Shown: in pieces, positions 4,318 through 30,728 of the stretch
Position numbering within the stretch: position 1 is the stretch's first letter
How the letters are laid out: each line of letters opens with the position of its first letter
Source of the DNA: a virus
Taxonomy: Duplodnaviria; Caudoviricetes
Direction: 5' to 3' (one strand)
Virus record (IMG/VR): IMGVR_UViG_3300020042_006565
Span: 1 to 55,161 of that record
Length of the DNA stretch: 55,161 nucleotides
The notes under the pieces: generated by a model
Seen by the model: only the letters and a program-made list of their open reading frames with translations
Told to the model about the DNA's origin: nothing
Database searches by the model: none
Program-made: the position numbers and the translations under genes

Positions 4318-7300
4318 CGCTTAGTTCCGATTGCAATTAAGTAGCGACTTTGAGTAGTGTGACCGTTACCCACCATTACCATAGTGTATGTATTTGCTGT
4401 TCCGAGCGTTGGAGAGCTATCAATGACTACGTCGGTATTGGCATAGTCATTACCGGCTCCTGGGAAAGCCCCATAAAAATTGCTGCTTGAGTAAACAGTA
4501 GTCCCGTTCCGTCTTATCTCTATTACTGACGATGTACCCCCGCCAGTGGTAGCACCATTTAAACTGTAGTAAAACAGAAGGATTACTGCCGGGGCGGCAC
4601 CGCTGGCGGCAGATGGCATGGTAATTGAGCCTAGCGTCAAAACCGTTTGGGTGCCTGGGCTAAGCGGGTTTGTCGCACTTACACCGCGATTTGCAGTAAT
4701 AGCCTCGCCCCTGACGTTAACGGTATCCACGGCATTGAGTGCGGCTGTCGTCAATGTGCCTGCAAAGGTACCGCTAGCAGCCGATAAAGACCCTGAAAAA
4801 CTCCCGGTGGCGGAAGATAAAGAACCTGCAAAGCTACCGGTAGCCGCCGACAAAGCCCCTCTAAATGTTCCCGTATTAAATTCTGCAGATCCTGACTTGG
4901 CTATAGCCCATCCTGCGCTACCCGCCACATAATTATCGGACTGTATCGTACCGCCTATCTTTGCGTTGGTTACCGCCAGGGCTTCTATCTTGCCGGTAGT
5001 TACAGCCAAGTCATTTATTTTCGCAGTGCCTACAGCCAAGTCATCTATCTTGGCTGTGCTTATTGCCAGATCAGCGATCTTGGCCGTGTCGATGCTGGCG
5101 TCGCCGATCTTGGCGGTGGTGATCGTGCCGTTCTGGATGAACCCGTCGGTGATGTAGACGCCCGCAGGGACGCTCACTCCGTTGATGGTGGTTGGCGTTG
5201 TTCTAACAATGAACGGGGCCAAGGGCTCGATGCCGGGGCCGGTGGGGCTGGCGATATAGAAGCTGTCCGCCCGCACGCCGAAGCTGCTTGTTACCCTGCC
5301 GTTGGCTTTCTCAGAAGCCAGCCCATACCCCGCCACGTACCCATTGACATCGAGCTTGACGGTGTACTGCGCCAGCAACGTTTCCGTCTCCACGCTGCGC
5401 AGCAGTGCCTCAATCTCCAGTGCTGCCTCGTCCTCGGCAGTCTGCGTTTGCAGCGTGGTGACTTGCGTGGCCAGTGCCCCGTCGGCATCGGCGCGGGCCG
5501 TTGACTCTGTCAATATCGCTGCTGCGTTGTCGCCCGTCGCTGCTGACAGCGTGGTGATCTGCGAAGCGATGGCTGAGTCTTGGGTTGTGCGTGCCAAAGT
5601 CTCGGCGGTCACCGCCGCTGCGTTGCTCCCGGTTGCGGCCGCAAGGCTGTTGAGTTGCGCCGCCACGGCGCTGTCGCTGCTGGCCCGCGCGTTCTGCTCT
5701 GCCAAAATGCCCGAACTGCTGTTGCCTGCCGCCACCGCAAGTCCCGTGATGTTGGCGGCTTGGGCCGAGTCTTGGGTAGACCGCACCTGTTGCTCCGCAA
5801 ACAGCGCAGCGGCGGTGTTGCCGGTCGATGCCCCCAGCACGGTGAGCTGACTGGCCACGGAGCTGTTTTCATCAGCGCGGGTTTCCTGCTCGGTTTTGAT
5901 GGCCGATGAGTTGGCCCCCACCGTCGCAGAGAGTGTGGCCGTGACCGCAGCAGACGCCGCATCAGCGGTCGCACGGGCGGTTTGTTCAACGATCAGTCCT
6001 GCCGTGCTGCTGCCCAACTGGGCCGCGATGGAGGTGGTTTGCGAAGCAAGTGCGGCGTTCTGATCCACCCGTGCAGCTTGCTCAACCTTCAACCCTGCGG
6101 TGTTCTCCTCCACCGAAGCCACGATGCCGGTCAAGGTGCTGGCCACGGCGCTGTCCGCAGCGGCCCGAGCGTTCTGCTCCGAGATCACCCCGGCGATGGT
6201 CCCGCCCACAGAAGCCCCGAGAGAAGTCACTTGCGACGCGGTCGCGCTGTCGGCCGTGGTGCGTGCGTTCTGCTCGGTAGTGACAGCGGCCAAACTACTT
6301 CCCGTCACCGCCACAACCACCTGAATCTGGCTGGCCACGGCGCTGTCAGCACCTGCGCGGGTCTGCTGCTCGGTCTGGATGGCTGCGGTAGCCCCTGCTG
6401 TGGCCGCGCCAACGGTAGACACCCGAGTGGCAAGCACGCTGTCGGCGGTGATGCGCGCAGTTTCCTCTGTGTCAATCAGTGCCGTGTTCGCGGCGATGTC
6501 CAGGGCGCGTGCGCTGGCTTCAGCCAAGTCGCCCGCAATCCGAGCTGCGATCTCGTTGTTTAGCGAGTTGATGACCCCACTCAAATCACCACTTGAAAGA
6601 TCGACAAGGGCGTCTACTTGATCCTGCAAGTCCGCATCAGCCAGCGCCCGAGCGGTTGCTTCCGCCTGCACCGCCAAGACTCGGTTGCCAACCTCCGTTT
6701 GCACCCGCTCATTCACCGATCCTGGCAGGCTGGCTAGTCCGTCGATGAGGTCAATCCGCCCGGTCAACGCCGCGTTTAACTGGCTCGTCGTGATCTGTGA
6801 TGTGAGCGCCTGAAGAAGCAGCGAAACGTCTTGGCCCGTCGTCGCCAACAAGCCGTTCGTTCCGCCTGCGGGGGACGCGCTCAACACGCCAGCGCGTGTT
6901 TCCCACTTGATCCACAGCCGCCATGTCGTCGCCGGGTTGCTCGGGTAGGCGTACACCGTCCCAGAGAACTGGGAGATCTCGGTGGCGTCCAGAAAAGTTG
7001 GCAGCGGGTCGCCCACGTCTACCACTTTGCCGTAGACCCGCGTGCGCAAATGCCGCCCACCTTGGATATAGCTGGGTGAATCGTGCTCGATGAAGACGTG
7101 GCTGATGGCGGACGCAACGCTGAAGCCCGTGGGCGTGGGGGGCGGCGTGAGGTCCAGCTCACCTTCTATGAACGGCGGCACCAGCGGCAACCCGCCGCCC
7201 CCAGGCCGAGGTGTGTACCCCGTCGGCAAAGTCGCCAGCCCGTTGTCCAGCAAGTCGCGCAGTGTGATGCCTCGGTCCAGCGGGCTGCCCTGCCGCCCCA

Positions 7301-7382
7301 GGTAGCCCATCAGCGTTTCCCGAACGCGCTGCTCAAAGTTCGCCGCGCTGGTGCTCGGGAGGTCGTTGCGGGAGTCACTCAT
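4314..7382 (-). CDS. tail fibre / host-specificity protein (1022 aa, DUF1983-like segment)
   Basis: Long coiled-coil repeat region (EQxARxxADSAxASQ), AQYTVKLDVNGYVAGYGL segment, TAKI repeats and a divergent C-terminal tip. Confidence 0.8.
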   Translation of the reverse strand: MSDSRNDLPSTSAANFEQRVRETLMGYLGRQGSPLDRGITLRDLLDNGLATLPTGYTPRPGGGGLPLVPPFIEGELDLTPPPTPTGFSVASAISHVFIEHDSPSYIQGGRHLRTRVYGKVVDVGDPLPTFLDATEISQFSGTVYAYPSNPATTWRLWIKWETRAGVLSASPAGGTNGLLATTGQDVSLLLQALTSQITTSQLNAALTGRIDLIDGLASLPGSVNERVQTEVGNRVLAVQAEATARALADADLQDQVDALVDLSSGDLSGVINSLNNEIAARIAGDLAEASARALDIAANTALIDTEETARITADSVLATRVSTVGAATAGATAAIQTEQQTRAGADSAVASQIQVVVAVTGSSLAAVTTEQNARTTADSATASQVTSLGASVGGTIAGVISEQNARAAADSAVASTLTGIVASVEENTAGLKVEQAARVDQNAALASQTTSIAAQLGSSTAGLIVEQTARATADAASAAVTATLSATVGANSSAIKTEQETRADENSSVASQLTVLGASTGNTAAALFAEQQVRSTQDSAQAANITGLAVAAGNSSSGILAEQNARASSDSAVAAQLNSLAAATGSNAAAVTAETLARTTQDSAIASQITTLSAATGDNAAAILTESTARADADGALATQVTTLQTQTAEDEAALEIEALLRSVETETLLAQYTVKLDVNGYVAGYGLASEKANGRVTSSFGVRADSFYIASPTGPGIEPLAPFIVRTTPTTINGVSVPAGVYITDGFIQNGTITTAKIGDASIDTAKIADLAISTAKIDDLAVGTAKINDLAVTTGKIEALAVTNAKIGGTIQSDNYVAGSAGWAIAKSGSAEFNTGTFRGALSAATGSFAGSLSSATGSFSGSLSAASGTFAGTLTTAALNAVDTVNVRGEAITANRGVSATNPLSPGTQTVLTLGSITMPSAASGAAPAVILLFYYSLNGATTGGGTSSVIEIRRNGTTVYSSSNFYGAFPGAGNDYANTDVVIDSSPTLGTANTYTMVMVGNGHTTQSRYLIAIGTKR

Positions 7383-7394
7383 GGCCGTCGGGCG

Positions 7395-8450
7395 TTAGCC
7401 CGTGAAGCTGGTGTTGAGCATGAACGCCGTTTGCAGCGTGGCTCCGTTAATGAACACGGCCCGGTAGTAACGCGTCATAACCGGCACCGTGAGCGTCACT
7501 ACCGTGTTAGCCGCCACTACGGTGTCTGCCGTGGCCCGCCGCCAAGTCGCGTTGTCGTTTGACATTTCAATCCGCAGCGTCCCGGCCTGATCCGCAAACG
7601 CCGAAGCATTGAACTCTGAGTAGCGATGCACTGCTGCTGCGGCAACCGCCGTATCCCGCGCAGTGCCCGTCACCGTTGCCGCCGCCGCTTGCGCGGTCAC
7701 GCTCTCGTTAAAGAACACGTTGTTCTGCGCAGTCGCATTGGCAGCCACGGTGGGCATACTCAAAACCTGCACTGGAGTGGAGTTGGCGATGGCTGCGGTG
7801 CCGTCCCCCCGAACAATGTTCACGCTCACGCCGGTCAGGTCTTGCAGCACCACCGCGTCGATGCTGACGGTGGTGCTTGTCGCAGGCGGAGTCGCCCCAT
7901 TCAAAACCCGAATCTGAACGTAGTAATCCTCGTTGGGGTCTAGCGCGTTGCGGTCAAAGTCCACCACCCCGCTCTTTATCGCGTTGGTATTCGCGGCCAC
8001 CGACGAAAACACCACATCCGTCGCATCGGCGTAAATGTCAAAGCTGGCGTACGAGGCGGTGGTTGGTACCGTGGCCGAAACGGCGGTGTTGTTCGTCCCC
8101 CCGTTTCCTGTCTGTGCTTGGGCCGAGGTGGCGGTTACGCCGTTGAAATCGTACCGAGCAAACGTGGTGCCCGCCGCGTTGGTCACTTCAAAGTAAATGT
8201 TCTGGTTGGCGATCCGCTGGCTCAACTGCGCAACGAACCGGGCGTAAAACTTGGTGCGAATTGGTTTGGTACACCGGACCGCCGTTTCCGCGTCTGCGGT
8301 CGTCCCCATCGCAATCGCCATCACCGAAGACGCCACCGTCACGGTCTGCCCCGCGCCAAGCTCAACAATGTTCCAGTCTGTGGGCAGTGCAGTGCCGGTG
8401 AACTCGTATCGCTGCTCTAGTCGGGTGGTGTCAACAGAAATGAGGGCCAC
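7395..8450 (-). CDS. virion structural / tail-associated beta-rich protein
   Basis: GTG start at 8450 preceded by AAGGAG. Thr/Ala/Val-rich. Located in the tail module. Confidence 0.6.
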   Translation of the reverse strand: MALISVDTTRLEQRYEFTGTALPTDWNIVELGAGQTVTVASSVMAIAMGTTADAETAVRCTKPIRTKFYARFVAQLSQRIANQNIYFEVTNAAGTTFARYDFNGVTATSAQAQTGNGGTNNTAVSATVPTTASYASFDIYADATDVVFSSVAANTNAIKSGVVDFDRNALDPNEDYYVQIRVLNGATPPATSTTVSIDAVVLQDLTGVSVNIVRGDGTAAIANSTPVQVLSMPTVAANATAQNNVFFNESVTAQAAAATVTGTARDTAVAAAAVHRYSEFNASAFADQAGTLRIEMSNDNATWRRATADTVVAANTVVTLTVPVMTRYYRAVFINGATLQTAFMLNTSFTG

Positions 8451-8460
8451 AGTGCGCTCC

Positions 8461-9288
8461 TTAGATGATGCGTTTGAACGAAGCGCCGCCACGAACAACC
8501 GTAGCGCCCACCGTAGTGGTCAGCGCCGTGACATCAGACTGACCCGCGATGGTCACGATGTACTCCTCCGATGACCCGGCCGAGGGCTTGACCACGGCCC
8601 CCAGCGGGTACTGCGTCTGAAACGCGTACGTGACGCAGCCAGAAACACAGATCACGTTGCCTGCACCCGGCAGTGCAGAGGCTGCGCCCAGCGTGTCCAG
8701 GCTCGTCCACGTTGGCAGGGTGGTCGACGCAGTGGTCGCCGTCGTGACCAAGAACTCTTTGAGCGAAGTCGCCGCAGGCCGCACGATCAGGCCAATGCCG
8801 TACACCGTGGCCACAACAAACGTGGTGGGGGTGTAGAACTTGGGCAGCGTCCTGAAAGACACCGTGCCGTCCGTTGTCGTGCCGCCGTCCGTCACCGTCC
8901 AAGTGGGCTCCGTCGCCGTGTTGGCCGTCGTGCCTGCCGTGGCCACAAAGAACAGCTTGCCCAGTGCAGCCTCACTGCCCGTTGCCGGGGTGATGGACGC
9001 AACCCGTGCGCCCAGCGCCAGAGCGGTGTTTTGAGGGCGCGTGCCATACGCCTCAATGTTGGTGCTGGTGCCTGATGCCGCCCAGTTGGCGCGAACAACT
9101 GTGCCGTTGTTGGCCAAGGTGGAGCCCGCCAAAAGCTCCCCAACAGACAGGGTGCCGGTGTTTCCCGCAGCGCCGCCGTTGGCGATGATGATGTTGGCGT
9201 CTGTTTCTTCCGGGTAACCGGGGGTGTCAATGGTGGTCGTGAAAGTCACGGTGCGAACCACGGTGACGCGGCGGGTGTTTTTAGGCAT
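8461..9288 (-). CDS. virion structural protein with internal repeats
   Basis: Thr-rich. Motif EPTW...GGTTTDGTV and three repeated Y..G..V.P units. Confidence 0.6.
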   Translation of the reverse strand: MPKNTRRVTVVRTVTFTTTIDTPGYPEETDANIIIANGGAAGNTGTLSVGELLAGSTLANNGTVVRANWAASGTSTNIEAYGTRPQNTALALGARVASITPATGSEAALGKLFFVATAGTTANTATEPTWTVTDGGTTTDGTVSFRTLPKFYTPTTFVVATVYGIGLIVRPAATSLKEFLVTTATTASTTLPTWTSLDTLGAASALPGAGNVICVSGCVTYAFQTQYPLGAVVKPSAGSSEEYIVTIAGQSDVTALTTTVGATVVRGGASFKRII

Positions 9289-9304
9289 GGTCTAGCCCTT
9301 TGAG

Positions 9305-10915
9305 TTAATAAAGCTCGGCCACCGTGGTGGCCAGCATGGCGTACTGCACGGGGGACGAGCCTTCGATTTCGATTTGCCAAGTCGTCGCCTCGAACCCCGA
9401 GGGCAAGCGAAACGGGCTGGCCGATGTGACGGTCTGTGTGTGCCTGAGCACGCTGTCGGCGTACAAGCGAACAGTCACGGGGTAGCTGTCTGCTTGCGCT
9501 TTGGCTGTGACAAAGTTGACCGGCTTTGGCTGCTTGAACAACTTCGACCGAAAGGTGTAAGTCATCGCCGTGCCCGCGTCCCACTTCTGCACGTTAGCGC
9601 CGTTCAGCACATACAACTGATCGCGCAACTCGTCAAAGTGCAGGGCCGTGTACCCCGTGCTCATGAAGTACAGCCCTGTCGGGTTGGTCGGGTCGATGAA
9701 GAACCCTTTGCGCCCGCTGCCCGCGTCGTAGCTGCCAAAGTACCGGCCCTCGTACATCCGACCAATGATCGAACTCGGGACCAGGGCCTGCCAGTCTTCC
9801 CGCAACATCAAACCTTCGGTGAGCACGCGAGTCCCGCCTGAGCCGATCCAGCACAGCCCGTCTTCACTGGCCCAAGCCACGCCGGTTCCCATTGCGGCCA
9901 CAGAGCGAGCAGCAACGCAGCCTTGGGGCAACTCCAGAAGCTGCTGGTCCATGCTGTCCGGCCCCGAGCCCGACACGATCAATGGCCGCGCAGTGGTGAG
10001 AACAATCAGGCTCTGCCCAAACGCAGCCAGCGCGACGGGCTTGGAATCCGGGGGCAAAATCTCATAGCCGATGGGCCACGCGTACGGGAGATAAGACTCG
10101 CAAAACCGCACTGCGTTGCCACTGATCCCCGCCAGCATGCCGTTCCACAACGAGGTCAGGTACGTCAAGTTGTCAGGAGGGGGGTACCACGTTGTCGTAG
10201 GCAAAACCTCACCCAAATCGCGCAGGTCGTCCTGCGTGGTGGTTGTGCCAATGGCGACCTCTCGCAAGAAGAAAAAATCAGTGGCCCCCGAACTGCTCGA
10301 CTGTGTGCGATAGATACGGATCAGGGTGATGTTGTAGTTGCCCGCAGGGACAGCAGAGAACGCGCTGAGCGTGGCGGTGGCATCGCTGGGGCGGTCGTTC
10401 TGTGCGCTCACCGGAGACGGTGCAGACTCCCATCCCCAGTCATTGACGTACGTGTAGACATAGAAGGCCGTATCCGTACTTCCTGTCCAAGTTCCCGTGT
10501 CGGTGGCGACAGTCGGTGCCCCGACAGGCGCGGGGACGCCCAGCGGTCGAATCACCACGGGGTTGCTCTGCGGGTCGGTGCCGTCCAGTGAAGTGTTGTC
10601 CGTGACCTTCGGAGCCCCGTCCCCAGAGTAGTAGGTTCGCTCTGTCGTGTCCGTTGCGTCGAACCCAAGAACTGCGTGGACAACCCCCGTCCAACTCAAC
10701 CAGTATTGGCTGTCGCTCGCCACGTCCCGGCCCATGCGGTAAATCGTCTGTCTCCCTGCGGGCACGGTGGCCACCGTGGTGGGAGCTTTCCAAGAACGCA
10801 AGTCGCCCCGCCCTGGCTTTTGATTAAGGCTCACCGTGCCCGTTGTTTCGGGCAGCAGCATCGGGTGCGTGGCGCGGTTCTCCCCGCCGAACCCTGCAAG
10901 GCGTACAACTGGCAT
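9305..10915 (-). CDS. tail nozzle / DNA stabilisation protein (tail tubular B-like)
   Basis: 536 aa, beta-propeller-like composition (FCESYLPYAWP, GCVAARS, WASEDGL). Position in the podovirus tail module. Confidence 0.65.
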   Translation of the reverse strand: MPVVRLAGFGGENRATHPMLLPETTGTVSLNQKPGRGDLRSWKAPTTVATVPAGRQTIYRMGRDVASDSQYWLSWTGVVHAVLGFDATDTTERTYYSGDGAPKVTDNTSLDGTDPQSNPVVIRPLGVPAPVGAPTVATDTGTWTGSTDTAFYVYTYVNDWGWESAPSPVSAQNDRPSDATATLSAFSAVPAGNYNITLIRIYRTQSSSSGATDFFFLREVAIGTTTTQDDLRDLGEVLPTTTWYPPPDNLTYLTSLWNGMLAGISGNAVRFCESYLPYAWPIGYEILPPDSKPVALAAFGQSLIVLTTARPLIVSGSGPDSMDQQLLELPQGCVAARSVAAMGTGVAWASEDGLCWIGSGGTRVLTEGLMLREDWQALVPSSIIGRMYEGRYFGSYDAGSGRKGFFIDPTNPTGLYFMSTGYTALHFDELRDQLYVLNGANVQKWDAGTAMTYTFRSKLFKQPKPVNFVTAKAQADSYPVTVRLYADSVLRHTQTVTSASPFRLPSGFEATTWQIEIEGSSPVQYAMLATTVAELY

Positions 10916-11199
10916 CAGACGTCTTTCACCGTCACGGTGAAGTCGGCTTCTTTGACCAAGTTGGCCGATGTGGTCAGCCTGACGGTGACCTTGTATTTGG
11001 TGCCGTTGGTGCCGCCCGACAGGACCGTCTTGACGACGTTGCCGGTGCGCGTAGACGCGACCACGGTGATGCCGGTCTCGGCAGTGGCCGTGAACGACGA
11101 GGGGGTATCGGTTCTGTTGGAGAACCAGTCCGTGAAGTCCACGTCGTAGTCCAGTACCTCAGCAGACTGCTTGGAGAATTTGCCCAGGATGGCGGTCAT
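10915..11199 (-). CDS. small tail/fibre adaptor protein
   Basis: Motifs K...EVLDYDVDFTDW and LSGGTNG..Y.VTV are typical of small phage Ig-like adaptors. Coupled start/stop overlaps on both sides. Confidence 0.6.
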   Translation of the reverse strand: MTAILGKFSKQSAEVLDYDVDFTDWFSNRTDTPSSFTATAETGITVVASTRTGNVVKTVLSGGTNGTKYKVTVRLTTSANLVKEADFTVTVKDV

Positions 11200-12683
11200 A
11201 CGGCTACCTCAAGGTCATCGGCGAGAACCGCTACATTGTATGTGCTAACAGGTAAGCTCGTCGATAGGTAGTCGGGCGATACCAAGACAGGCCCGTCTCC
11301 GATTGGAACGAAGCAGCTGAGTGCGTCTGTTGGGACCAGGATGTAGCGAAGCTCCACCCCGAGCAGGGAGGTATCGCCGGAATCCCCGACGTCGAGCGAA
11401 TAAAGCGAGCCTACGGCGTAAGCGCTGTTGAGCGCCTGGACCAGAGCAGACGAGCCACTGAGGGCGACTGCGCCAAAGGCTGTGGTGAAACTTGCTGCCT
11501 GAGTCCCGGCCGCAGTACCGCTGATCGCGGTGGTGCCGGTTGCGGAAGTTGTGTTGACCGCTTGTGTTCGAGCAGCAGATCCACTGATACCGACCGCGCC
11601 GGTCGCAGAGGCTGTGTTGAGTGCTTGTGTGCGGGCGACAGAACCGGAGAGGCTAGGAGCTAGGACCGTGCCCGTGCCCGAAGCTGTATTGGCGAGCTGC
11701 GCGAGTGCTGAAGACCCACTGATCGAATTAGTACCGGTCGCTGTAGTTGAGCTGACGGCCTGAGTGCGGGCAACGGTTCCGCTGATCGAGACAGTACCGG
11801 TCGCAGAGGCTGCGCTGGTAGCTTGCGTCAGAGCAGCAGAACCGCTGATACCCACTGCGCCTGTAGCGCTCGCCGAATTAGGCTGCTGAGTGACGGAGGC
11901 AAAACCAGACGGCCCCGCGACGACCGATCCAGACGCCGCTACTAAGTTGGGCGCTTGTGCGGCAGATGACGTGCCACTGACAGAATTAGTGCCGGTCGCA
12001 GAGGTTGCGTTGGCGGCTTGGAGCGGGGACGCCGTTCCTGAAACAAGGGCAGCACCCGGAGCAACTTGCAGCCAGGAGACCTGCACAACATCGTAAACAG
12101 CGCCGCTTGCAGCCGAAGTGCCGAGCGCTTGCGTGGCGGATGACGATCCGCTGATGGCATTAGCGCCGGTCGCTGACGCAGCGTTGACGTTCTGCGCAAC
12201 GGCCGCCGAGCCAGAGACACCTGCGGCAGTGACACTGCCCGTCGCTGACGCCGAGTTGGCAAGTTGGGTGGCGGATGAGGCCCCGCTGACCGAGACCGTG
12301 CCCGCAGCTGATGAGGCGTTGAGCTGCTGGGTTCTGGATGCCGTACCGCTGATGGATACGGAGCCGGTAGCGGCGGCAGAGTTAACAAGCTGAGCGGCGG
12401 ATGCCGAGCCGGACACACCAGCGGCAGAGACAGTACCGGATGCGGCGGCCGTGTTGAGCTGCTGGGTTCTGGATGCCGTACCGCTGACTGAGACAGCGCC
12501 TGTAGCGCTCGCAGCATTAAGCCCCTGAGTGGCGGCTGAGGTTCCGCTGATGGATACGGAACCCGACGCAGAAGCAGCGTTAGCAAGCTGAACAGCGGCT
12601 GAGGAGCCGGTGATGCCAGATACACCCGCGACAACGGGTAACGCCCCAATCGGACGTGATGCGATTGGGTAAAAGCCGAGCAT
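11196..12683 (-). CDS. Ala/Ser/Gly/Thr-rich repeat protein (495 aa), probable fibre or decoration
   Basis: About 20 tandem 19-21 aa repeats of SGxAAxxQxxNxASATGxV. Confidence 0.7.
   Translation of the reverse strand: MLGFYPIASRPIGALPVVAGVSGITGSSAAVQLANAASASGSVSISGTSAATQGLNAASATGAVSVSGTASRTQQLNTAAASGTVSAAGVSGSASAAQLVNSAAATGSVSISGTASRTQQLNASSAAGTVSVSGASSATQLANSASATGSVTAAGVSGSAAVAQNVNAASATGANAISGSSSATQALGTSAASGAVYDVVQVSWLQVAPGAALVSGTASPLQAANATSATGTNSVSGTSSAAQAPNLVAASGSVVAGPSGFASVTQQPNSASATGAVGISGSAALTQATSAASATGTVSISGTVARTQAVSSTTATGTNSISGSSALAQLANTASGTGTVLAPSLSGSVARTQALNTASATGAVGISGSAARTQAVNTTSATGTTAISGTAAGTQAASFTTAFGAVALSGSSALVQALNSAYAVGSLYSLDVGDSGDTSLLGVELRYILVPTDALSCFVPIGDGPVLVSPDYLSTSLPVSTYNVAVLADDLEVAV
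12318..12487. repeat. 35-bp exact direct repeat (12318-12352 and 12453-12487)
   Basis: GTTGAGCTGCTGGGTTCTGGATGCCGTACCGCTGA occurs twice within the repeat-protein gene. Confidence 0.85.
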
Positions 12684-12686
12684 GGC

Positions 12687-13088
12687 TTACACCACAGGCC
12701 AGTCACTGCGCATGTCGTATGCGCAGACGTCCTCAATCGTCGTCATCGCGTCGATGGTGTCGCGGTGCATCCCTGACACGCCAGCAATCTGGGCCTCAAG
12801 GGTGCTGAGTTGCTGGGCCTTCTCCAGCACCAGCACAATCAGCGCAGCCTCGGTGATTCCGCGATAACCAGCCTCCAGCGTCAGCATGGGGCCACCGCCA
12901 GCGTTCGCCTCGTCCAACTTGATGGGCCAACTGGACATCTCAGCGGGTGAGGTTCCTGCGGTGACTTGATTACGCAAAGATGCTGCTGCCGCATCGACCA
13001 CAGCGGAACGATCTGCTTGAGCCTCGACGAGCGTTGCAAACTCGATGTCAGGCCCATTAAAAAATTGGTTGTCTTGATAAATTAACAT
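12687..13088 (-). CDS. tail fibre assembly-like protein
   Basis: Motifs E..SWPIK..EA and L..EA..RGIT...L resemble phage tail assembly proteins. Confidence 0.55.
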   Translation of the reverse strand: MLIYQDNQFFNGPDIEFATLVEAQADRSAVVDAAAASLRNQVTAGTSPAEMSSWPIKLDEANAGGGPMLTLEAGYRGITEAALIVLVLEKAQQLSTLEAQIAGVSGMHRDTIDAMTTIEDVCAYDMRSDWPVV

Positions 13089-13090
13089 GA

Positions 13091-13969
13091 TTACCAGTAC
13101 CAGATATCTAATCGACCATCACCACCCTTGCCGCCAGCACCGCCAGTAATACCGCCAGCACCGCCGCCACCACCACACCCATATACCCCATCACCTCCAC
13201 GGCCACCCGTGCCCACAGAGTTTCCTCCACCGCCCATACCGCCAGTGCCAGCCAAAAACGGCTCATACCATAAGCCACTCTGTCCTAAACCCCCACCAAC
13301 CGCACCCCCCAGTAGTGAAGCAGAAATATTATTTAGGCCCGTAAGTCCACCACCAGCGAAATTTGCGTTTGCGGCACTGCAACTACCGCCTGCGCCACCA
13401 CCACACCCTCTGCCCAATGATTGAAGCGTGAGTAGAGAGGCAGTCGCCCCGGCAGACCCACCCTGCCCTGCAATTCCAGTCGTCACTGTAAGAACTACTA
13501 AAAATACGTTTATCGCACCTGTGGCTCCTGCGGCGCCAGCCGATCCACCCGCAGTAGTTCCGAAGCCTCCTCCAGACCCTCCCGGCGCAGTTACAAAGGG
13601 TGAGGCGGTTGATGCTGAGTGATCCACATATATATTACTCGCAATACCCGCACCCCCGGCCACCCCAGTCGCGCCACCCGCTCCACCTCTTCCTATTGAT
13701 ACTGGAATAGACCCATTGAAAAATGACGCACGAAACAGTATTCGACCATCACCGCTTCCGCCGCCACCGCCGCCCCCAGCGCGAATAGTCGATGTGGCTC
13801 CGGTTGCACCACCTCCACCTCCACCTCCAGCACCTCGCAAGTGAAGATAAATCCATTGCGCCCAACGAGGGTATGTTATTTGAGTAATGTTGCCATTCGC
13901 TGCCGTGGCATTACCCAAGACAACGATATGATTTTTGTCAGACGAATAAAGGTTTGTTTGGAAATCCAT
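13091..13969 (-). CDS. glycine-rich tail protein, paralogue 2
   Basis: GAGGGGGGG, GGGGGSG and YGCGGGGG motifs. Start placed at ATG 13969, just after the upstream stop. Confidence 0.7.
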   Translation of the reverse strand: MDFQTNLYSSDKNHIVVLGNATAANGNITQITYPRWAQWIYLHLRGAGGGGGGGATGATSTIRAGGGGGGGSGDGRILFRASFFNGSIPVSIGRGGAGGATGVAGGAGIASNIYVDHSASTASPFVTAPGGSGGGFGTTAGGSAGAAGATGAINVFLVVLTVTTGIAGQGGSAGATASLLTLQSLGRGCGGGAGGSCSAANANFAGGGLTGLNNISASLLGGAVGGGLGQSGLWYEPFLAGTGGMGGGGNSVGTGGRGGDGVYGCGGGGGAGGITGGAGGKGGDGRLDIWYW

Positions 13970-23255: not shown

Positions 23256-23500
23256 TTCAGCCCCTTCAGGTGGATGTAGAGACCAGCAGCCAAGACGGTC
23301 AACAGCGCGGTAGTGCAGACCTGCGCCACGGTCTTCCAGGCTGTGGTCTTGGCATCTCGCCACGCTTCGAGCAAGCTGCGCAGCTCCATGACGTCACGCA
23401 CGGCGGCATCGTCGTGCAGCCCGATGGACTCCAACGCTTCGCGCGCACCGCGCTTGGCGGCACGCTCCAGTAGAGCTTCGAGTTCAGATTCGCTCATCAT
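23252..23500 (-). CDS. small membrane-anchored protein (DUF6127-like), possible lysis accessory
   Basis: AA.RGA..AL..IGL.D..A..D..ELRSLL.AWR.AK plus a C-terminal hydrophobic helix. Confidence 0.6.
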   Translation of the reverse strand: MMSESELEALLERAAKRGAREALESIGLHDDAAVRDVMELRSLLEAWRDAKTTAWKTVAQVCTTALLTVLAAGLYIHLKGLK

Positions 23501-25608
23501 GCTGGCTGGAAGTTGTCGGTTACGGGAGCACCATTCATCAGCTGCTGCTGATTTGGCTTCTGAGGCGCGTTTTGCATCTCCTGCTGCATGGCTTGCTGCG
23601 CCTGTTGGGCCTGCTGCATCGCGGCGCGTTCCTTGAGGACTGCCACGGGCGGGACCACCTTGTCAGCGTTCATGTCCAGCGTCTTGACCGTCTGGCGCAG
23701 CACCTCGGCTCTGCCCTCCATGCCGATGATCTGCATGTCAATCGGATTGGCCGTGGCCAGCAAGAACTCGTTGCGGCGAACCTGGGCAGCTTCCTTGACC
23801 GCGAGCGACATGGCCCCGCGCGAGATGACTTTGACGTCACCCTTCAGATCGGGGTCGTCGCTGTAGCGCATGTTGTAGTAGTACAGGCGGTCGAGCAGCT
23901 TGGTCATGACGTGGATGTCGATGCCTGCCACCACCTGCTTGATGATCTTGGACGCGTTGCCAATCATCATGCTCATGCCCGACGCCGTGCGCCCTGCCCC
24001 GCCCGAGTCGCCGTTGAACCCGGACATGTACCGTGGGATGCCGGTGTATTCATCGGCCAGCTGAGAGAACCGGTCGAACACCGTCATCAGCTCGGAGGAG
24101 TTGCTCTGCGGCTGGAAAAACTGGATCGGTGAGGCGGTCGAGCCCATCGGGTCCGACTCGAACTGCCAGATCTTCCACGGGTACATCTCGGTCACGTCCT
24201 CGCCGGGTGGCAGACGGTTCGACAAGATCGCCACCTGCGGGCCTGAGCTGATGCCCAGGTTCGCGGCCAGTGAACGCGCAGCGGCGTTACACATGTCCTG
24301 GCAGTCGCGCATCAAGTCGTACGGGCTGTCGCCCCACACCGAGCCGGGGATCTGATGGAACGAGTACGAGAAGTACGGACGACGCGCCAGCGGGTCGGCG
24401 TTGAGCACCGCCTTGATGACGTACGAGCCGATGAGCCACGCCTCGATCTGGTACTCCTTGGCCGGGTCTTCGACCTGCTCAGCAGGCAGTCCCCAGTCCA
24501 ACAGCATCTGGCCGGAGGCCGAGCCCCAGAACTGCAGTGCGTCGATCAGGCCGGTGGTGACCGCAGCGTTGATCTGGTCCTTACCCTCAGCAGCAGCACG
24601 CTGCGAGTCCACCGACAGCCAATCGTGCAGACCGGACGTGCCGTACTGCTCCAGCACCTTACGGATCGCGGCTTCGCTGTAACCCTCGACACCGATCAGC
24701 TGGGTCAGGTCCTCGCGGGTCAGCTTGTGTTTCTCGATCAGCGAGCCTTCGCTGATGTGACGAGCCCACGGGGCTGGGTAGATGTTGAACGGGTCCACCC
24801 GCTCCCACTGCAGCGTGAGCTTGGTCTCGACGGCCAACTCGCCGTCCTGGCCCCATGACAGCTGTGGGCGGTTACGCACCACAGGCCCCTTGAGGAACGC
24901 AGTCTTGAACGTGGCCAAGTCGCTGATGAACTGGTCCATCGCAATCGGAAATCCACCCTCGACAAGTTGGTCCTCCATCTTGTCTTCCATGCGCTCACAG
25001 CGTATCTGGGCTTCTTCCTTGAGCTTGGTGTTGAGCTGGTCGCGGTACATGCGCAGCCGCTCTCGCACTTGGTCCATCGTGGGCTGCAGACCCGCCTCCA
25101 GGATCTGCTGAATTTCTTCCTGCAAGCCCTGAACGATCTTTTGCACCTGCTCGGGCGGCAGCTCGGGGTTCGGCGTCGGGCTCAGGGTCCACGGCTTGTC
25201 TTCGCCCATCCCCAGCAAGATGTCGCGCAACAGACTCTCGATCTGCCGCATCTTGCTCGCGGCGAGCATCATGTAGATCGCAGGCTGCTTGGACTCCTGG
25301 ATCTTCGCCAGCTTCTCTGTCGTGTACTCGCCGCGTCGGGCGTACAGGGCTTCGAGCATGGGCAGCTGCACGATCAATTTGGCTCGCTCGGCCTTGCCCC
25401 AGAAATCTTTGATGTGACCAGCCAGCCCAGCAATAGCCGGTGCGCTCTGCTGAGTCGCAAGCTCTGCGGCCATCTCTTTTTTCTTCTGCTCCTGCACGGC
25501 TGCCGCGTTCATGAACGGCATCACCCCGCCCAGGCTCCCCGACATCGGGGCCTGGGGAGCGAACTTAGGGACCGTGTACGACGGTGACGGCAGGCCGGTG
25601 GTTTCCAT
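23497..25608 (-). CDS. portal protein
   Basis: 703 aa downstream of the terminase. VDPFNIYP, GAGRTASGMSM and a Gln-rich C-terminal barrel typical of podovirus portals. Confidence 0.85.
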   Translation of the reverse strand: METTGLPSPSYTVPKFAPQAPMSGSLGGVMPFMNAAAVQEQKKKEMAAELATQQSAPAIAGLAGHIKDFWGKAERAKLIVQLPMLEALYARRGEYTTEKLAKIQESKQPAIYMMLAASKMRQIESLLRDILLGMGEDKPWTLSPTPNPELPPEQVQKIVQGLQEEIQQILEAGLQPTMDQVRERLRMYRDQLNTKLKEEAQIRCERMEDKMEDQLVEGGFPIAMDQFISDLATFKTAFLKGPVVRNRPQLSWGQDGELAVETKLTLQWERVDPFNIYPAPWARHISEGSLIEKHKLTREDLTQLIGVEGYSEAAIRKVLEQYGTSGLHDWLSVDSQRAAAEGKDQINAAVTTGLIDALQFWGSASGQMLLDWGLPAEQVEDPAKEYQIEAWLIGSYVIKAVLNADPLARRPYFSYSFHQIPGSVWGDSPYDLMRDCQDMCNAAARSLAANLGISSGPQVAILSNRLPPGEDVTEMYPWKIWQFESDPMGSTASPIQFFQPQSNSSELMTVFDRFSQLADEYTGIPRYMSGFNGDSGGAGRTASGMSMMIGNASKIIKQVVAGIDIHVMTKLLDRLYYYNMRYSDDPDLKGDVKVISRGAMSLAVKEAAQVRRNEFLLATANPIDMQIIGMEGRAEVLRQTVKTLDMNADKVVPPVAVLKERAAMQQAQQAQQAMQQEMQNAPQKPNQQQLMNGAPVTDNFQPA

Positions 25609-26093: not shown

Positions 26094-26123
26094 GTATAGT
26101 GCTTACACGTATGCAAATGCAAC
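26094..26123 (-). promoter_or_regulatory. sigma70-like promoter TTGCAT-N18-TATACT with palindrome variant in the spacer
   Basis: Read on the minus strand upstream of the 26061 start. Operator variant GCTTACACGTATGC at 26101-26114. Confidence 0.5.
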
Positions 26124-27557
26124 GGACTTGATCTCTCTGCGGGTCGTGGCGTGCTTGGCCCCGAACGTCGCCCCATTGTCCGCGTGCAGGCAAATGTACT
26201 GGAGTGAGTCGGCGTAGTCAGACCACGGGTGGCTCTTCTCCGGCGTCTCGTCCTTGTCGCCCTTCGAGTTGATCTTGTAGCGGTACTTGCTACGCATGGC
26301 GATGATGAGCTGGGTGCAGCCTTCCTTGTCGAACAGGATCGCGGGTTTTCCGTCGATGGTCCTGGTCAGGTAGCTGTCCACTGCGGCCAGCCGGGCTGTG
26401 ATCGTGTTGGTCTTGGCCGGTTTAACGACGAACCCCTCGGCTTTGAAGATGTCAGCCACGGTGCGCTCGTCGGTCTGCGCTCTTTGGAACGCTGCCGGGT
26501 CGATGATGATGACTGACGGCTTGCCCGCGTACTTGGTCGCTATCAGCGGCTTGAGCATCTCCCGCACGAACCTCAGCGCACCCATGCTCTCGCCGGATAT
26601 GGAGTCATGCACGATCAACCGGCCCTGGTAGTCGAGCTGCGCGATGGTCGCTGTGGGGGTCAGGCCTGCATCCACCCCGATGATGATCGGTGCCGAGAGC
26701 ACGTTCAGCTTGCTCGTCGAGATGTGCGTGTCCTGCTTGAAGCTGCTGAACACCGGCTTGCCGGAGAGCGACTTGCCGAACTGCGCGTGGATGTACACGT
26801 CGATCCAGTCCTGCGTTTTCCCCTCTGCGAGGTCGTCGTAGTAAGACGCGGGCAGGAACTGCAGCCAATCTGCCTCTGTGGCCAGCCCGGATGGCTGGAA
26901 AAAGACAGCTACGTTCGACGGAGGATCTGTCAGCAGCGCCTCCCAGTGCGTGTCCATGTCCGGTGGGTTCGTCATCCCCCACAGGTGCTTGTTCGGACTG
27001 CCATCGTCGGTGACGCACCCGCCTATCGCGTGTCCTTTGTCGTCCTTGCCCCACTCGGGGCGTGGCGGCACGAGCATCTTGTCCGGGTATCTGCCCAGAC
27101 GGCCCTGGATCGCCTCGAAGATGTCCCTGTGGATCTCTCTGAACTCGTCCAGGATGGCAAAACTCGCCTGCAGCGACAGCAGCCGCCTCACGTCGTTCGA
27201 GTCATCCAGGCCCCGGAACAGAACTTCGCACTCGACGTCGTCGAACTTCAGCGTGAACTTCATGTCCACCTTGGCCATCGACCCTGCCTGGCCGTCCGGG
27301 AACCACTTCAAAAAGTCCGGGATGCTGGGGTCGGTGAGCATCTGCCGCGTGTTTCGTATCCACACCGCCCTCGATCTGCGGATACCGTCCTTGCACGCGG
27401 CCATCTGCTTGGCGTGGTACGCGATCTTCATGATCCCTGCGCTGGTCTTGGTGCTGCCGACCGGGCCGACGATCAGCGAGATGAACGAGTCCGAGCCCAG
27501 GAACCCCTGCACTGACTCTGGGGGGTTGAAGTCGATGCCGTGAGTGGTTTTGCTCAT
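26103..27557 (-). CDS. terL: terminase large subunit
   Basis: Walker A GPVGSTKT, Walker B AILDE, coupling motif MTNPP, RNase H-like nuclease motifs GVDAG and DYADSLQY. Confidence 0.9.
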   Translation of the reverse strand: MSKTTHGIDFNPPESVQGFLGSDSFISLIVGPVGSTKTSAGIMKIAYHAKQMAACKDGIRRSRAVWIRNTRQMLTDPSIPDFLKWFPDGQAGSMAKVDMKFTLKFDDVECEVLFRGLDDSNDVRRLLSLQASFAILDEFREIHRDIFEAIQGRLGRYPDKMLVPPRPEWGKDDKGHAIGGCVTDDGSPNKHLWGMTNPPDMDTHWEALLTDPPSNVAVFFQPSGLATEADWLQFLPASYYDDLAEGKTQDWIDVYIHAQFGKSLSGKPVFSSFKQDTHISTSKLNVLSAPIIIGVDAGLTPTATIAQLDYQGRLIVHDSISGESMGALRFVREMLKPLIATKYAGKPSVIIIDPAAFQRAQTDERTVADIFKAEGFVVKPAKTNTITARLAAVDSYLTRTIDGKPAILFDKEGCTQLIIAMRSKYRYKINSKGDKDETPEKSHPWSDYADSLQYICLHADNGATFGAKHATTRREIKSVAFAYV

Positions 27558-27910: not shown

Positions 27911-27919
27911 GACCAGATA

Positions 27920-28150
27920 TTACATCAACGGTGTCGTAAATAGGGTTAAGTACGCATCGCGCTGATTACGCAGGACTATCGCTGCGTTTTGCTGTGGGGC
28001 GGTCAGGGGTAATTTGGTCGCCTGGAACAACAGCTGCACAGCGTGGGCTGTGAGCGGGTCCTTATTAATAGCAAAGATCTGCAGCCCTTCTGCTGCCAGG
28101 TCGTGCAGCTCTGCGAGCTGGGTGTTTTTTGGCTTGGGTGTCATAGCCAT
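27920..28150 (-). CDS. hypothetical protein (76 aa)
   Basis: First ORF of the leftward operon. No clear RBS. Confidence 0.4.
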   Translation of the reverse strand: MAMTPKPKNTQLAELHDLAAEGLQIFAINKDPLTAHAVQLLFQATKLPLTAPQQNAAIVLRNQRDAYLTLFTTPLM

Positions 28151-28233
28151 GAATGTAGGGGATTTTTTGGAAAAATTTTTGGGGGAGGGGTGCTTTTTGG
28201 GCGCGAAATGGGCTGGGTGTCATAGCCATGAAT
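28135..28233. repeat. 20-bp direct repeat TGGGTGTCATAGCCATGAAT (28135-28154, 28214-28233)
   Basis: Exact duplicate read directly from the sequence. Confidence 0.85.
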
Positions 28234-28339
28234 CGAAAAATTGGGCTTGAGATGTATGAACTACCCCCCTACCCCCACGCCGCCCGCCTGGTTGGTCCCA
28301 CCCCCCCACCCCGGCACCCCCCGAAAACACGGAAAACAC

Positions 28340-28910
28340 AGTCGCACCGTTTATGTAAGAACAGCGGCTGTCGTAACCCTGGTGTTCTTACTGACTTAGA
28401 TGCAAGCCGGTGCGCAACTTCCGCACCGCTACCCGAAAGGGAGAGAGCACTAGGTTACCCGTGAGGGGACTCCATCTATGGTGGAGACTAGGATTCGGGA
28501 TTGATGTTTAGGCGCAACTGTGCGGCTAACCCAGTTCCTGCATGAGTAACCCAGCGTTTGTTTAGCGCAGCGCTGGTGTAGGGGTGCAGGTTCGGCTGGG
28601 CGTGTAGCAGTGAGGTGGTTTGCAGCGCCGATAGTCAAGTCGAACCGCGTGTGAAGCGCGAAACCGAATCCTACTGGATCACAACCGTCCGGACGTGCGG
28701 GGCGCAAAGCTCTCGACAGCCCCCGGACGTGATAGGCGCGCATGGCGTGCCAACGATCACTTCACAAGCGCCTTATCAGGGGGGCGCGTAATACCCCTGC
28801 GGCTTGGCAAGCCACAAAACCCGCGAGTCGGCGCGGACAGTACCGACACAAAGTTTCAGCCAATGCCCACAGTCTATCGTGGGCATTACCGGGCGCTTTG
28901 ACCCGAAACC
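28340..28910 (+). ncRNA. candidate large structured RNA (~570 nt)
   Basis: At least 15 helices found by eye, including long-range 28489-28498/28664-28673, GNRA-capped hairpins and a 3' pseudoknot. No credible ORF. Confidence 0.7.
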
Positions 28911-28940
28911 CCCTTAATCATTCACTCAAGGAGCTACACC

Positions 28941-29471
28941 ATGTCCACCAATCAACAAGAACCCGTCGTGTTCACCATCGAAGACTTCAACAAGAGCATT
29001 GCGGTGCTCGTCAAGGGCCAAGCCAAGACTGCGAAGTCTATCGGCGCACTGCTGCTCCAGTGCCTCTACTTCTCTATCGTGGAGAAGGACGCTGGAGCGG
29101 CCAATGGGCTGATCGCCTGCCTGCGCAAGTCCACCAAGCAGGCCGGAATAATCGCGCTGCTGGAGACGCACGGCAACCTCGTGTGGCAGAAGTCCCTCAA
29201 GACCCCGCGCTTCGCTCACTTCGACGCTGACTGGGAGTGGACTCAGGAGTACGTGGACGGCATGCGCGAGGTCTGCGCTGACTGGGAGAGCTACAAGCCA
29301 GAGACTGAGAAGGAGACTGAGTTCGACGTCATCAAGGCGCTGGAGTCCCTCCAGAAGAAGGCAGTCTCTGCCAAGAGCAAGAGCCTCAACATCAAGGGCG
29401 AAGCTGCGCTGCAAGCGATCAGCTTGATCGTGGCCAAGTACAACGCGGCTGCTATCGACAAGGTTCTGTGA
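28941..29471 (+). CDS. early hypothetical protein (176 aa) between the structured RNA and the hammerhead
   Basis: AAGGAG RBS and strongly C/G-ending codons like the highly expressed phage genes. Confidence 0.85.
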   Translation: MSTNQQEPVVFTIEDFNKSIAVLVKGQAKTAKSIGALLLQCLYFSIVEKDAGAANGLIACLRKSTKQAGIIALLETHGNLVWQKSLKTPRFAHFDADWEWTQEYVDGMREVCADWESYKPETEKETEFDVIKALESLQKKAVSAKSKSLNIKGEAALQAISLIVAKYNAAAIDKVL

Positions 29472-29473
29472 CA

Positions 29474-29536
29474 CCTGCCCACTGATGAGGCCCCGTGGCA
29501 GGGGCCGAAACCCTGCGCTAGTTGGCAGGGTCTGGG
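29474..29536 (+). ncRNA. type I hammerhead ribozyme
   Basis: CCCA-CUGAUGA-GGCCCC(GUGGCA)GGGGCC-GAAA-CCCUGC(GCUAGUUG)GCAGGG-UC-UGGG. The complete core is present and predicted cleavage is after C29532. Confidence 0.93.
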
Positions 29537-29539
29537 AAG

Positions 29540-29985
29540 CTCTAATTAATATTAATTGTCGCCATGGCAACTTGCTTACACGTCAGCGAGCTGTCCTCTG
29601 GCGCTGTTCTTATTAGAGAGGGCTCTTTTTTGGGACCCATTTGTTCGATTGATAAGGATTCATCGCTATGGCTCTGCATGGGTCCCCATGCATCTACTTA
29701 TCTCTATATTAATCATATTAATATAATTAAAGAGAGAAAAGAGAGCCAGAAAGCTACGCTCTGTTGTCATGCGCATGAATCGCGGCGCGCTCGCTCCTCA
29801 GTTGTCATAGCGACAAGTTCGCACAAGCTTTTGCTCTCAGTGGGAAAAACGGCTCTAATATATTAATAAGAAAAAAGTCCTTGCATAGCCAGCCGTGCGC
29901 ATGCATAGCGACAAGCTCTTATTAGAGACCCCTCTTATTAATATGCCTCTAATAAGACCCCGCCCACCCCTAATAAGACCCGCAG
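29540..29985. other. AT-rich repeat-containing non-coding region, candidate replication origin/control region
   Basis: CTTATTAGAG at 29609 and 29918, inverted copies at 29947 and 29968 (1 mismatch), palindrome AATTAATATTAATT at 29544 and an AT tract at ~29700-29740. Confidence 0.5.
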
Positions 29986-30043
29986 CGCCCTCGCATCGAG
30001 CAAGCGCAGCACTGGTCAGCGCCCTTTTTCTCCCCCACAACTC

Positions 30044-30057
30044 GCTTACATGTAAGC
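30044..30057. promoter_or_regulatory. perfect palindromic operator GCTTACATGTAAGC
   Basis: Upstream of the small early gene array. Confidence 0.75.
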
Positions 30058-30101
30058 AAGTTGTTCGTTCGTCCCCCACTCACTTAATAAAGGACAGCAC
30101 C

Positions 30102-30269
30102 ATGAACCACCAAATTCCAGTCGCCAACATCGCAGATGAGATCGAGACAGTCCAAGACTTCTTCCTTCTTCTTAATAACCCGCACCTCCCGCCCCTGCAC
30201 TTGGCAGAGGAAGACAACCCAGGCGACCGGACGTTCATCCACACCCTCGAAGACCCGACCTCATATTAA
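30102..30269 (+). CDS. small early hypothetical protein
   Basis: AAAGGA RBS, ATG 30102 (MNHQIPV...). Confidence 0.55.
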   Translation: MNHQIPVANIADEIETVQDFFLLLNNPHLPPLHLAEEDNPGDRTFIHTLEDPTSY

Positions 30270-30282
30270 TAAGGAGCAGACC

Positions 30283-30459
30283 ATGCAGATCAAAGTAGTT
30301 TTCGAGTTCCCCGACGTCACCGACCCCACCAGCGCGGCAGCGTTCCACATCCTCTCCACGTTCGAGCGCGACTGCAACCGGCTGGTGTACCGGCAGTACA
30401 CCGCCAACGACACCAACTACGCGTACATCGAGCGCGACGACCCAACTGACGAGGAGTAA
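30283..30459 (+). CDS. small early hypothetical protein
   Basis: TAAGGAG RBS, ATG 30283 (MQIKVVF...). Confidence 0.65.
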   Translation: MQIKVVFEFPDVTDPTSAAAFHILSTFERDCNRLVYRQYTANDTNYAYIERDDPTDEE

Positions 30460-30461
30460 CC

Positions 30462-30728
30462 ATGCCAAACCCAACACGCACAACCTGCATGTTCCTCAAC
30501 GCAGAGGACATCGAGAAGATCGCCCAGTCAACCAACTGGGACAAGCTGATGACCGCCATCGCCTACCTTTCTACGTGGAACATCGCCACGTTCCCTGTAG
30601 TGACCATCACCCGCGACCGGATGGACACGAACGACTTGTTCGCCCTCTATCACGACCCCAAGCACCCCGAAAGGCGCTACTCAATCGGTGCCGTCTGGCA
30701 CGGCGACCACTACGGCTTCCACTCATAA
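30462..30728 (+). CDS. small early hypothetical protein (88 aa)
   Basis: GAGGAG RBS. C-terminal IGAVW....YGFHS. Confidence 0.7.
   Translation: MPNPTRTTCMFLNAEDIEKIAQSTNWDKLMTAIAYLSTWNIATFPVVTITRDRMDTNDLFALYHDPKHPERRYSIGAVWHGDHYGFHS

Follow-up and report, generated by a model that had tools for sequence, protein, structure and literature searches.

A predicted type I hammerhead ribozyme behind a gene of an uncultivated tailed phage, and its relatives in viral contigs

The question raised by this locus is whether a short stretch directly behind a protein-coding gene of an uncultivated tailed phage, at positions 29474-29536 of its genome, encodes a self-cleaving RNA, and, if so, which contacts hold that RNA together and what its cleavage would do to the phage messages. 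The window analyzed here is the whole source record, a phage genome of 55,161 nt that looks complete (93%). An earlier note on this DNA had called the element a type I hammerhead ribozyme, a description borne out by its core, by three helices of which stem I is open, and by how strongly it matches a family model built independently. The resemblance to a hammerhead is real and not a chance match; from its sequence, we put the probability that the element is a type I hammerhead RNA of the plus strand, with self-cleavage predicted, at about 0.8.

The conserved core of hammerhead ribozymes consists of C3 U4 G5 A6 N7 G8 A9, of G12 A13 A14, of the pair A15.1-U16.1, and of H17, which is not G. All of these are in place in the window (CUGAUGA, GAA, A29510-U29531, and C29532), and the topology is that of type I, with stem I open and stems II and III closed by loops. 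Every piece of core and stem that the earlier note had listed was recovered at its position, and the anatomy reads as follows.

29478-29481, plus strand: 5' strand of stem I, CCCA, pairing with 29533-29536
29482-29488, plus strand: catalytic core CUGAUGA (C3-U4-G5-A6-U7-G8-A9), read directly
29489-29506, plus strand: stem II of 6 bp with loop II, 29489-29494 pairing with 29501-29506
29495-29500, plus strand: loop II, GUGGCA, closing stem II
29507-29509, plus strand: core G12-A13-A14, read directly (GAAA is 29507-29510)
29510-29531, plus strand: stem III of 7 bp with its loop, A29510-C29516 pairing with G29525-U29531
29517-29524, plus strand: loop of stem III, 8 nt
29530-29532, plus strand: GUC triplet, read directly
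29532-29533, plus strand: predicted scissile bond between C17 (29532) and U1.1 (29533), from hammerhead numbering
29533-29536, plus strand: 3' strand of stem I, UGGG, pairing with CCCA
29537-29541, plus strand: 3' tail AAGCU, in which G29539-U29541 is the putative pseudoknot partner, by homology

The first pair of stem II is G10.1-C11.1 (G29489-C29506), and stem III has 7 bp when A15.1-U16.1 (A29510-U29531) is counted and 6 bp without that pair. The bond C29532/U29533 is what we take to be the cut site, following the established hammerhead numbering scheme. The minimum-energy fold of 29470-29545 is the exact three-way junction, at -32.3 kcal/mol, an energy that is ordinary for the composition of this stretch (z -1.49; 14 of 200 shuffles fold equally well).

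A descriptor of the motif demanding stems of at least 4/4/4 bp matched the window once and matched none of 400 dinucleotide shuffles (whole window, both strands); relaxed to 3/3/3 bp, it found matches in 2 of 400 dinucleotide shuffles of the window. Relatives were fetched from viral contigs with two patterns, the first composed of the core and stem II of the window (12 viral contigs matched) and the second, looser one of the core letters and GUCYGGGA only, with no pairing demanded (75 viral contigs matched). Over the fetched loci the descriptor recovered 107 hammerheads, 90 of them distinct, from which one spurious element with "stems" of 40 and 60 nt (locus L116, minus strand) was dropped to leave 89 in the family set. 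A covariance model, R1, was then trained on 86 of these elements, all from viral contigs other than the window. Run on the window with filters off, R1 aligned over its full length (1-66 of 66) to 29474-29545 with 68.5 bits and an E value of 3.4e-19, a score in the upper part of the range of its training members (40-75 bits). Because the next R1 match in the window reached only 13 bits, the window carries a single copy.

Covariation was analyzed in a MAFFT alignment of 87 sequences, in which 99.7%, 93.6%, and 99.8% of the cells of stems I, II, and III were paired. Both-sided changes were present at 4 of the 4 pairs of stem I, 5 of the 6 of stem II, and 5 of the 6 of stem III (14 of 16 in total), although part of this stem covariation is built in, the descriptor itself having required paired stems. 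The covariation score of the 87 sequences was 0.488 against 0.129 for shuffled alignments, with none of 500 shuffles reaching it, and it fell to at most 0.10 when the pairing partners were slid by 1-3 columns. RNAalifold independently predicted the same junction, with compensatory changes at 13 of 15 pairs. Because the descriptor required paired stems, the cleaner evidence comes from the 59 distinct matches to the looser pattern, which demanded no pairing: the 5' strand of stem I was fully complementary (4 nt) in 57 of the 59, and all three stems had at least 4 bp in 50. The pair G10.1-C11.1 is G-C in 87 of 87 sequences, with its letters fixed by the fetch pattern in many of them, and CUGAUGA is invariant in the family alignment except at position 7, being partly fixed by the fetch pattern and the descriptor.

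The family members share an architecture in which a stop codon lies directly, or by a few nucleotides, before a 4-bp stem I (CCCR/YGGG), followed by the core, a stem II of 5-7 bp, a variable stem III, and an A-rich tail; the cleavage triplet is GUC, with GUA in four members. The CCCR/YGGG elements form a coherent type I subgroup in viral contigs. The nearest relatives of the window's copy are the elements in loci L050 and L056, in which stem II, loop II, and the start of the tail are identical to those of the window. Stem I is also identical in L050, and stem III of both relatives has an entirely different sequence with the pairing kept.

A search with the Rfam hammerhead models, which the earlier note had suggested as a check, returned nothing at the gathering cut-offs and only weak matches below them. 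For the whole window, Rfam 15 gave 0 matches to any hammerhead family at these cut-offs, and the permissive search gave two matches: Hammerhead_3 reached 21.8 of the required 48.5 bits, in a register that is permuted and wrong, and RAGATH-1 (RF03152), aligned in the correct register over model positions 27-76 of 77, reached 19.9 of 56.3 bits. At its cut-offs, Rfam 15 also gave 0 matches over 12 copy-rich family loci, and because these loci score 0 as well, the miss reflects the coverage of the models and not a defect of the window's copy.

Each loop II was compared with its own and with swapped flanks over 61 distinct loop/tail combinations. For the 8 nt that follow stem I, the best helix scored 3.48 on average with own flanks and 2.67 with swapped ones, and 0 of 2000 permutations reached the observed value; for the 8 nt before stem I, own and swapped flanks both scored 2.49 (973 of 2000 permutations reach it). 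This supports a family pseudoknot in which loop II pairs with the 3' tail, without involvement of the upstream sequence. Sixty distinct members reach a helix score of 3 or more, and 41 of them have a linker of 1-2 nt between stem I and the pseudoknot. Within the subclass with a 6-nt loop II, to which the register analysis was restricted, three central pairs covary in one fixed register: loop position 5 faces tail position 3 as C-G in 8 cases and U-A in 3, loop position 4 faces tail position 4 as G-C in 7, A-U in 2, and G-U in 2, and loop position 3 faces tail position 5 as G-C in 9 and G-U in 2. Placed in this family register, the window has C29499-G29539, G29498-C29540, and G29497-U29541 (two Watson-Crick pairs and one G-U) after a 2-nt linker behind stem I. 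The window's own loop II-tail score, 2.5 against a swapped mean of 2.67, is not above chance alone, and its pseudoknot between G29497-C29499 and G29539-U29541 is credible by homology without being significant on its own.

Once at least 38 nt of upstream sequence are folded along with the element, the nearest-neighbor model favors a competing long-range helix over the junction by 0.6-3.3 kcal/mol. This helix pairs about 29464-29484 with about 29519-29537 and so hides core and cut site, and the probability of stem III drops to 0.22-0.30, in a calculation that ignores pseudoknots and co-transcriptional folding. Such an energy gap of at least 0.6 is found in 62 of the 89 family members, with a median of 1.3. 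The competing helix was also considered as a switch and rejected as such, equal or larger gaps being present in those 62 of 89 members.

The genomic surroundings of the element include the following features, together with a plus-strand replication block that encodes a family A DNA polymerase, an SNF2 helicase, and a DUF927 protein.

23497-25608, minus strand: SU10-type portal
26103-27557, minus strand: large terminase
28941-29471, plus strand: upstream protein-coding gene, 176 aa, with its TGA stop at 29469-29471, 6 nt before stem I
29542-30101, plus strand: A+T-rich, repeat-laden non-coding stretch without coding signal, with repeats and palindromes

The upstream gene has a third-position G+C of 0.82, a clear coding signal, and its 176-aa product matches phrog_1448 (unknown function) with an E value of 4e-8; it found no match in Pfam or NCBIfam, and five nearby proteins found none in NCBIfam. 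Downstream, the third-position G+C signal is absent from every frame between about 29500 and 30100, and short direct repeats and palindromes abound from about 29540 to 30100. The next credible start lies at about 30102 or 30136, that is, after about 560-570 nt of non-coding DNA, and the only nearby downstream start is a TTG at 97 nt, which opens a frame without coding signal. Neither a sigma-70-like promoter nor a plus-strand intrinsic terminator pattern was called in 28500-30500, and no U-tract follows either hairpin of the window's element. The earlier note had the element sitting where a terminator would be expected, which is right as to place, 6 nt past the stop codon, but does not extend to an intrinsic terminator pattern on the plus strand nearby.

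The non-coding DNA on both sides of the upstream gene carries further repeated elements. A 25-nt motif ending in GTCATAGCCATGAAT is present in two copies 79 nt apart (28130-28154 and 28209-28233) where the terminase block and the plus-strand genes diverge, with a 68% copy downstream of the hammerhead at 29756-29780; the motif could be a promoter or an operator of the phage. Most of the non-coding DNA behind the hammerhead is bracketed by the arms of an inverted repeat (29568-29594 and 30037-30063; 27 nt, 89% complementary), the second of which lies within a palindrome at 30037-30064, and these arms may represent two paired operators or mark the ends of a cassette inserted between the ribozyme and the next gene. 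Both non-coding regions also contain a motif (D1) that is G-rich and then runs into a stretch of T and GG, at 28112-28134, 28180-28202, and 29613-29635. The last of these copies closes a long imperfect hairpin that starts just past the cut site (29534-29627) and may act as a weak terminator. Between a small terminase-like ORF and the gene at 28941, the plus-strand frames of about 1 kb (27911-28940) have no clear third-position G+C signal, and the ORFs listed there may not be genes.

Across the family, the stop codon of an upstream ORF lies at most 40 nt away in 62 of the 89 copies (36 abut stem I), and a Shine-Dalgarno sequence with a start codon follows within 120 nt downstream in 75 of the 89, the median distance from the cut being 35 nt. 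In the window, the upstream stop is present, at 6 nt, but a close downstream gene is missing; because no credible gene follows for about 560-570 nt, the usual intercistronic role is not directly applicable to this copy. The densest locus seen is L099, in which the descriptor found 11 family hammerheads within about 7.6 kb (5800-13470, minus strand of the locus). Among the nine of these copies for which the next gene was printed, 8 lie 33-37 nt from its ATG and 1 at 90 nt, and a conserved ribosome-binding sequence follows most copies. Judged by this layout, the L099 locus appears as a ribozyme-punctuated operon.

R1 found 114 matches in 79 pattern-fetched loci, a count that includes its training sequences. 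A blastn and tblastn search of 50,697 named phage records with the hammerhead neighborhood gave no match. No homologue of the 176-aa upstream protein was found in the viral-contig locus search, in the pattern-fetched loci, or by tblastn against 45 loci with a related terminase; the pairing of gene 28941-29471 with the ribozyme is not conserved. The early region around the hammerhead is likewise not common to these 45 terminase-relative loci, and a family hammerhead is present in only one of them, L021 (379,106 nt searched; L021 is in the R1 training set). The copy in L021 (1477-1537, minus strand) is an A+T-rich type I element whose core reads CUGAAGA and whose stem I has 6 bp; it lies about 3.3 kb upstream of the terminase and on the other strand, in a topology shared with the window. 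The remaining carriers of the hammerhead are only distantly related phages. In bacterial and archaeal genomes, the fetch pattern was matched by 37 stretches in 596 billion bases, where about 34 are expected by chance under uniform base composition, and R1 gave a match with E at most 0.001 in 8 of these 37 loci (two marginal, at 22.5 and 21.7 bits). The subgroup is mainly seen in viral contigs.

Among the 20 runs listed, none of RNA was named for this region, and variation at the locus was read from DNA contigs of two related strains from other studies (runs X3 and X4). The covered parts of the hammerhead (29478-29541 in X3 and 29478-29498 in X4) carry no substitutions, whereas the related-strain contigs differ from the window at 29578, 29601, 29648, 29651, and 29656 and at many coding positions. 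One extra C is present after 29477 in both, and in X3, directly past the tail, 80 other letters replace 3 (29541/29545). This pattern is weak evidence for what could be constraint on the ribozyme and a recombination joint at its 3' edge. A separate 380-nt contig of run X4 (freshwater metagenome, depth 25) matches the window at 29481-29511 only and diverges on both sides; the 31 shared nucleotides are the core, stem II, and GAAAC, and the contig probably holds another hammerhead in a different genome.

We infer that the element is catalytic, that the window's copy forms its pseudoknot, and that cleavage has effects on RNA stability and expression. During transcription, stems II and III would fold as local hairpins, the short 4-bp stem I would then close the three-way junction, and the pseudoknot between loop II and the tail (in the window, G29497-C29499 with G29539-U29541) would hold stem I beside stem II. 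The core would cut between C29532 and U29533. The upstream message would keep nearly the whole ribozyme as a structured 3' terminus bearing a 2',3'-cyclic phosphate, and a downstream RNA with a 5'-OH would start at U29533. In most relatives, this cut would separate two adjacent cistrons. In the window, it would sever the upstream gene's message from a long stretch of repeat-rich non-coding DNA, making the ribozyme a 3'-end or insulator element, and it would presumably set the 3' end of the 28941-29471 message, with a folded 3' cap left behind.

Other readings of the locus have to be set against this one. Two G+C-rich hairpins past a gene, for example terminator-like ones, might carry the core letters by coincidence, and the unexceptional fold energy (z -1.49) and the unmet curated cut-offs of Rfam would agree with such a chance resemblance. 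We regard it as extremely improbable: a motif of this kind appeared in 0 of 400 shuffled windows, the match to the independent family model (E 3.4e-19) effectively refutes it, and the agreement extends to non-core features (CCCA, UGGGAAGC, and a stem II and loop II as in L050 and L056), with no U-tract past either hairpin and no terminator called on the plus strand. Very unlikely, too, is an active type I hammerhead of the form that the earlier note had envisaged, braced by GGCA of loop II (29497-29500) with UGCC upstream (29476-29479). The two tetranucleotides are indeed complementary, giving four Watson-Crick pairs in the window sequence, and the extra C after 29477 in X3 and X4 would, by reading of the letters and not by computation, cut the overlap between UGCC and stem I from 2 nt to 1. 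The upstream pairing nevertheless takes C29478-C29479, half of the 4-bp stem I, and in this way competes with the junction. The upstream partner is unsupported because the complementarity of loop II to upstream sequence across the family equals that of the swapped controls. UGCC is found within the 8 nt before stem I in none of the four relatives that share the GUGGCA loop, and the predicted probability of the U29476-A29500 pair is at most 0.01 in every context folded.

A further alternative accepts the hammerhead but takes the window's copy to be a decaying or silenced member of its family, whose downstream cistron was replaced, whose pseudoknot is weak, and which is trapped by the competing helix. 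The distance to the nearest credible downstream gene (about 560-570 nt against a family median of 35 nt), a pseudoknot of two Watson-Crick pairs and one G-U, an alternative helix more stable by 0.6-3.3 kcal/mol in context, and the 80-for-3 letter swap past the tail in X3, which marks a recombination-prone junction, would all fit this account. We nonetheless consider it unlikely, given that the core and all three stems are perfect, that 68.5 bits belongs to the upper part of the 40-75 range of the family, that the covered parts of 29478-29541 are unsubstituted in two related strains while their flanks vary, and that competing folds of this kind are usual in the family and come from a calculation that ignores co-transcriptional folding.

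The preferred reading is that of an intact type I hammerhead, putatively braced through its 3' tail. For the design of constructs, it matters that the partner of loop II in the tertiary contact has been corrected from the 5' flank to the 3' tail. Whether the window's copy serves as a substitute for a terminator, or as an insulator, at a module boundary, with a released 5'-OH RNA that has a role of its own, is a doubtful extension of this reading. If true, the 5'-OH RNA would start where the repeat-, palindrome-, and A+T-rich region 29540-30100 begins, a possible origin or operator cluster, and could, for example, activate or prime that region. Type I elements of this subgroup may also mark recombination joints between phage gene cassettes, the 80-letter replacement in X3 adjoining the tail. 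Taken alone, the window's copy adds little, and the comparison of the family is more useful: R1 provides a working model for a type I subgroup that falls below the curated cut-offs of Rfam 15, and the contrast between copies packed between cistrons (up to 11 per operon) and the single copy of the window facing non-coding DNA could help to test the effect of cleavage on phage messages.

Among known hammerheads, only RAGATH-1 (RF03152) has an Rfam model that places the window in the correct register. RAGATH-1 is also known as the "PK hammerhead", with a crystal structure (PDB 8YDC), and in place of helix II it has a pseudoknot formed with the loop of an additional 5' hairpin (PMC11300833). The window's element resembles RAGATH-1 in its type I-like form, its 4-bp stem I, the order of its core letters, and its long stem III, but its stem II is an ordinary hairpin of 6 bp and a 5' hairpin is absent. 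Membership in RAGATH-1 was rejected in view of the stem II hairpin and of a score of 19.9 bits against 56.3. Extended type I hammerheads, such as that of the Schistosoma satellite, make a contact between loop II and stem I and cleave fast at low Mg2+; their contacts are non-Watson-Crick ones between the loop and a bulge in a long stem I, and they reside in eukaryotic repeats. The window's element has the same core and type I topology as the Schistosoma satellite hammerhead, unlike which its subgroup combines a short stem I with a base-paired contact to the tail and a setting in phage operons.

Perreault et al. (2011; PMC3088659) described hammerheads of all three types that have pseudoknots and cluster in prophages. 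The clusters described there flank genes in prophages, and the cutting of long phage transcripts into gene-length mRNAs was suggested (PMC3088659); a 2019 review still called the biological role of phage hammerheads unresolved (PMC6765202). With the prophage hammerheads of the 2011 study (PMC3088659), the window's element shares a canonical core and three helices, as well as a place in phage DNA beside genes whose identity varies, its relatives being multi-copy and flanking single genes; the Watson-Crick pseudoknot that aligns stems I and II is supported for its family and putative in the window's copy. The worked examples and mutational tests of that study are mainly of type II, in which loop I pairs with the 3' tail after stem II (PMC3088659), whereas the window's element is of type I and would pair loop II with the tail after a 4-bp stem I; unlike the clustered elements, it is a lone copy, and no gene lies close downstream. 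Pseudoknot-braced phage hammerheads being already in print, the element of the window adds an ordinary member to the known phage-borne hammerheads.
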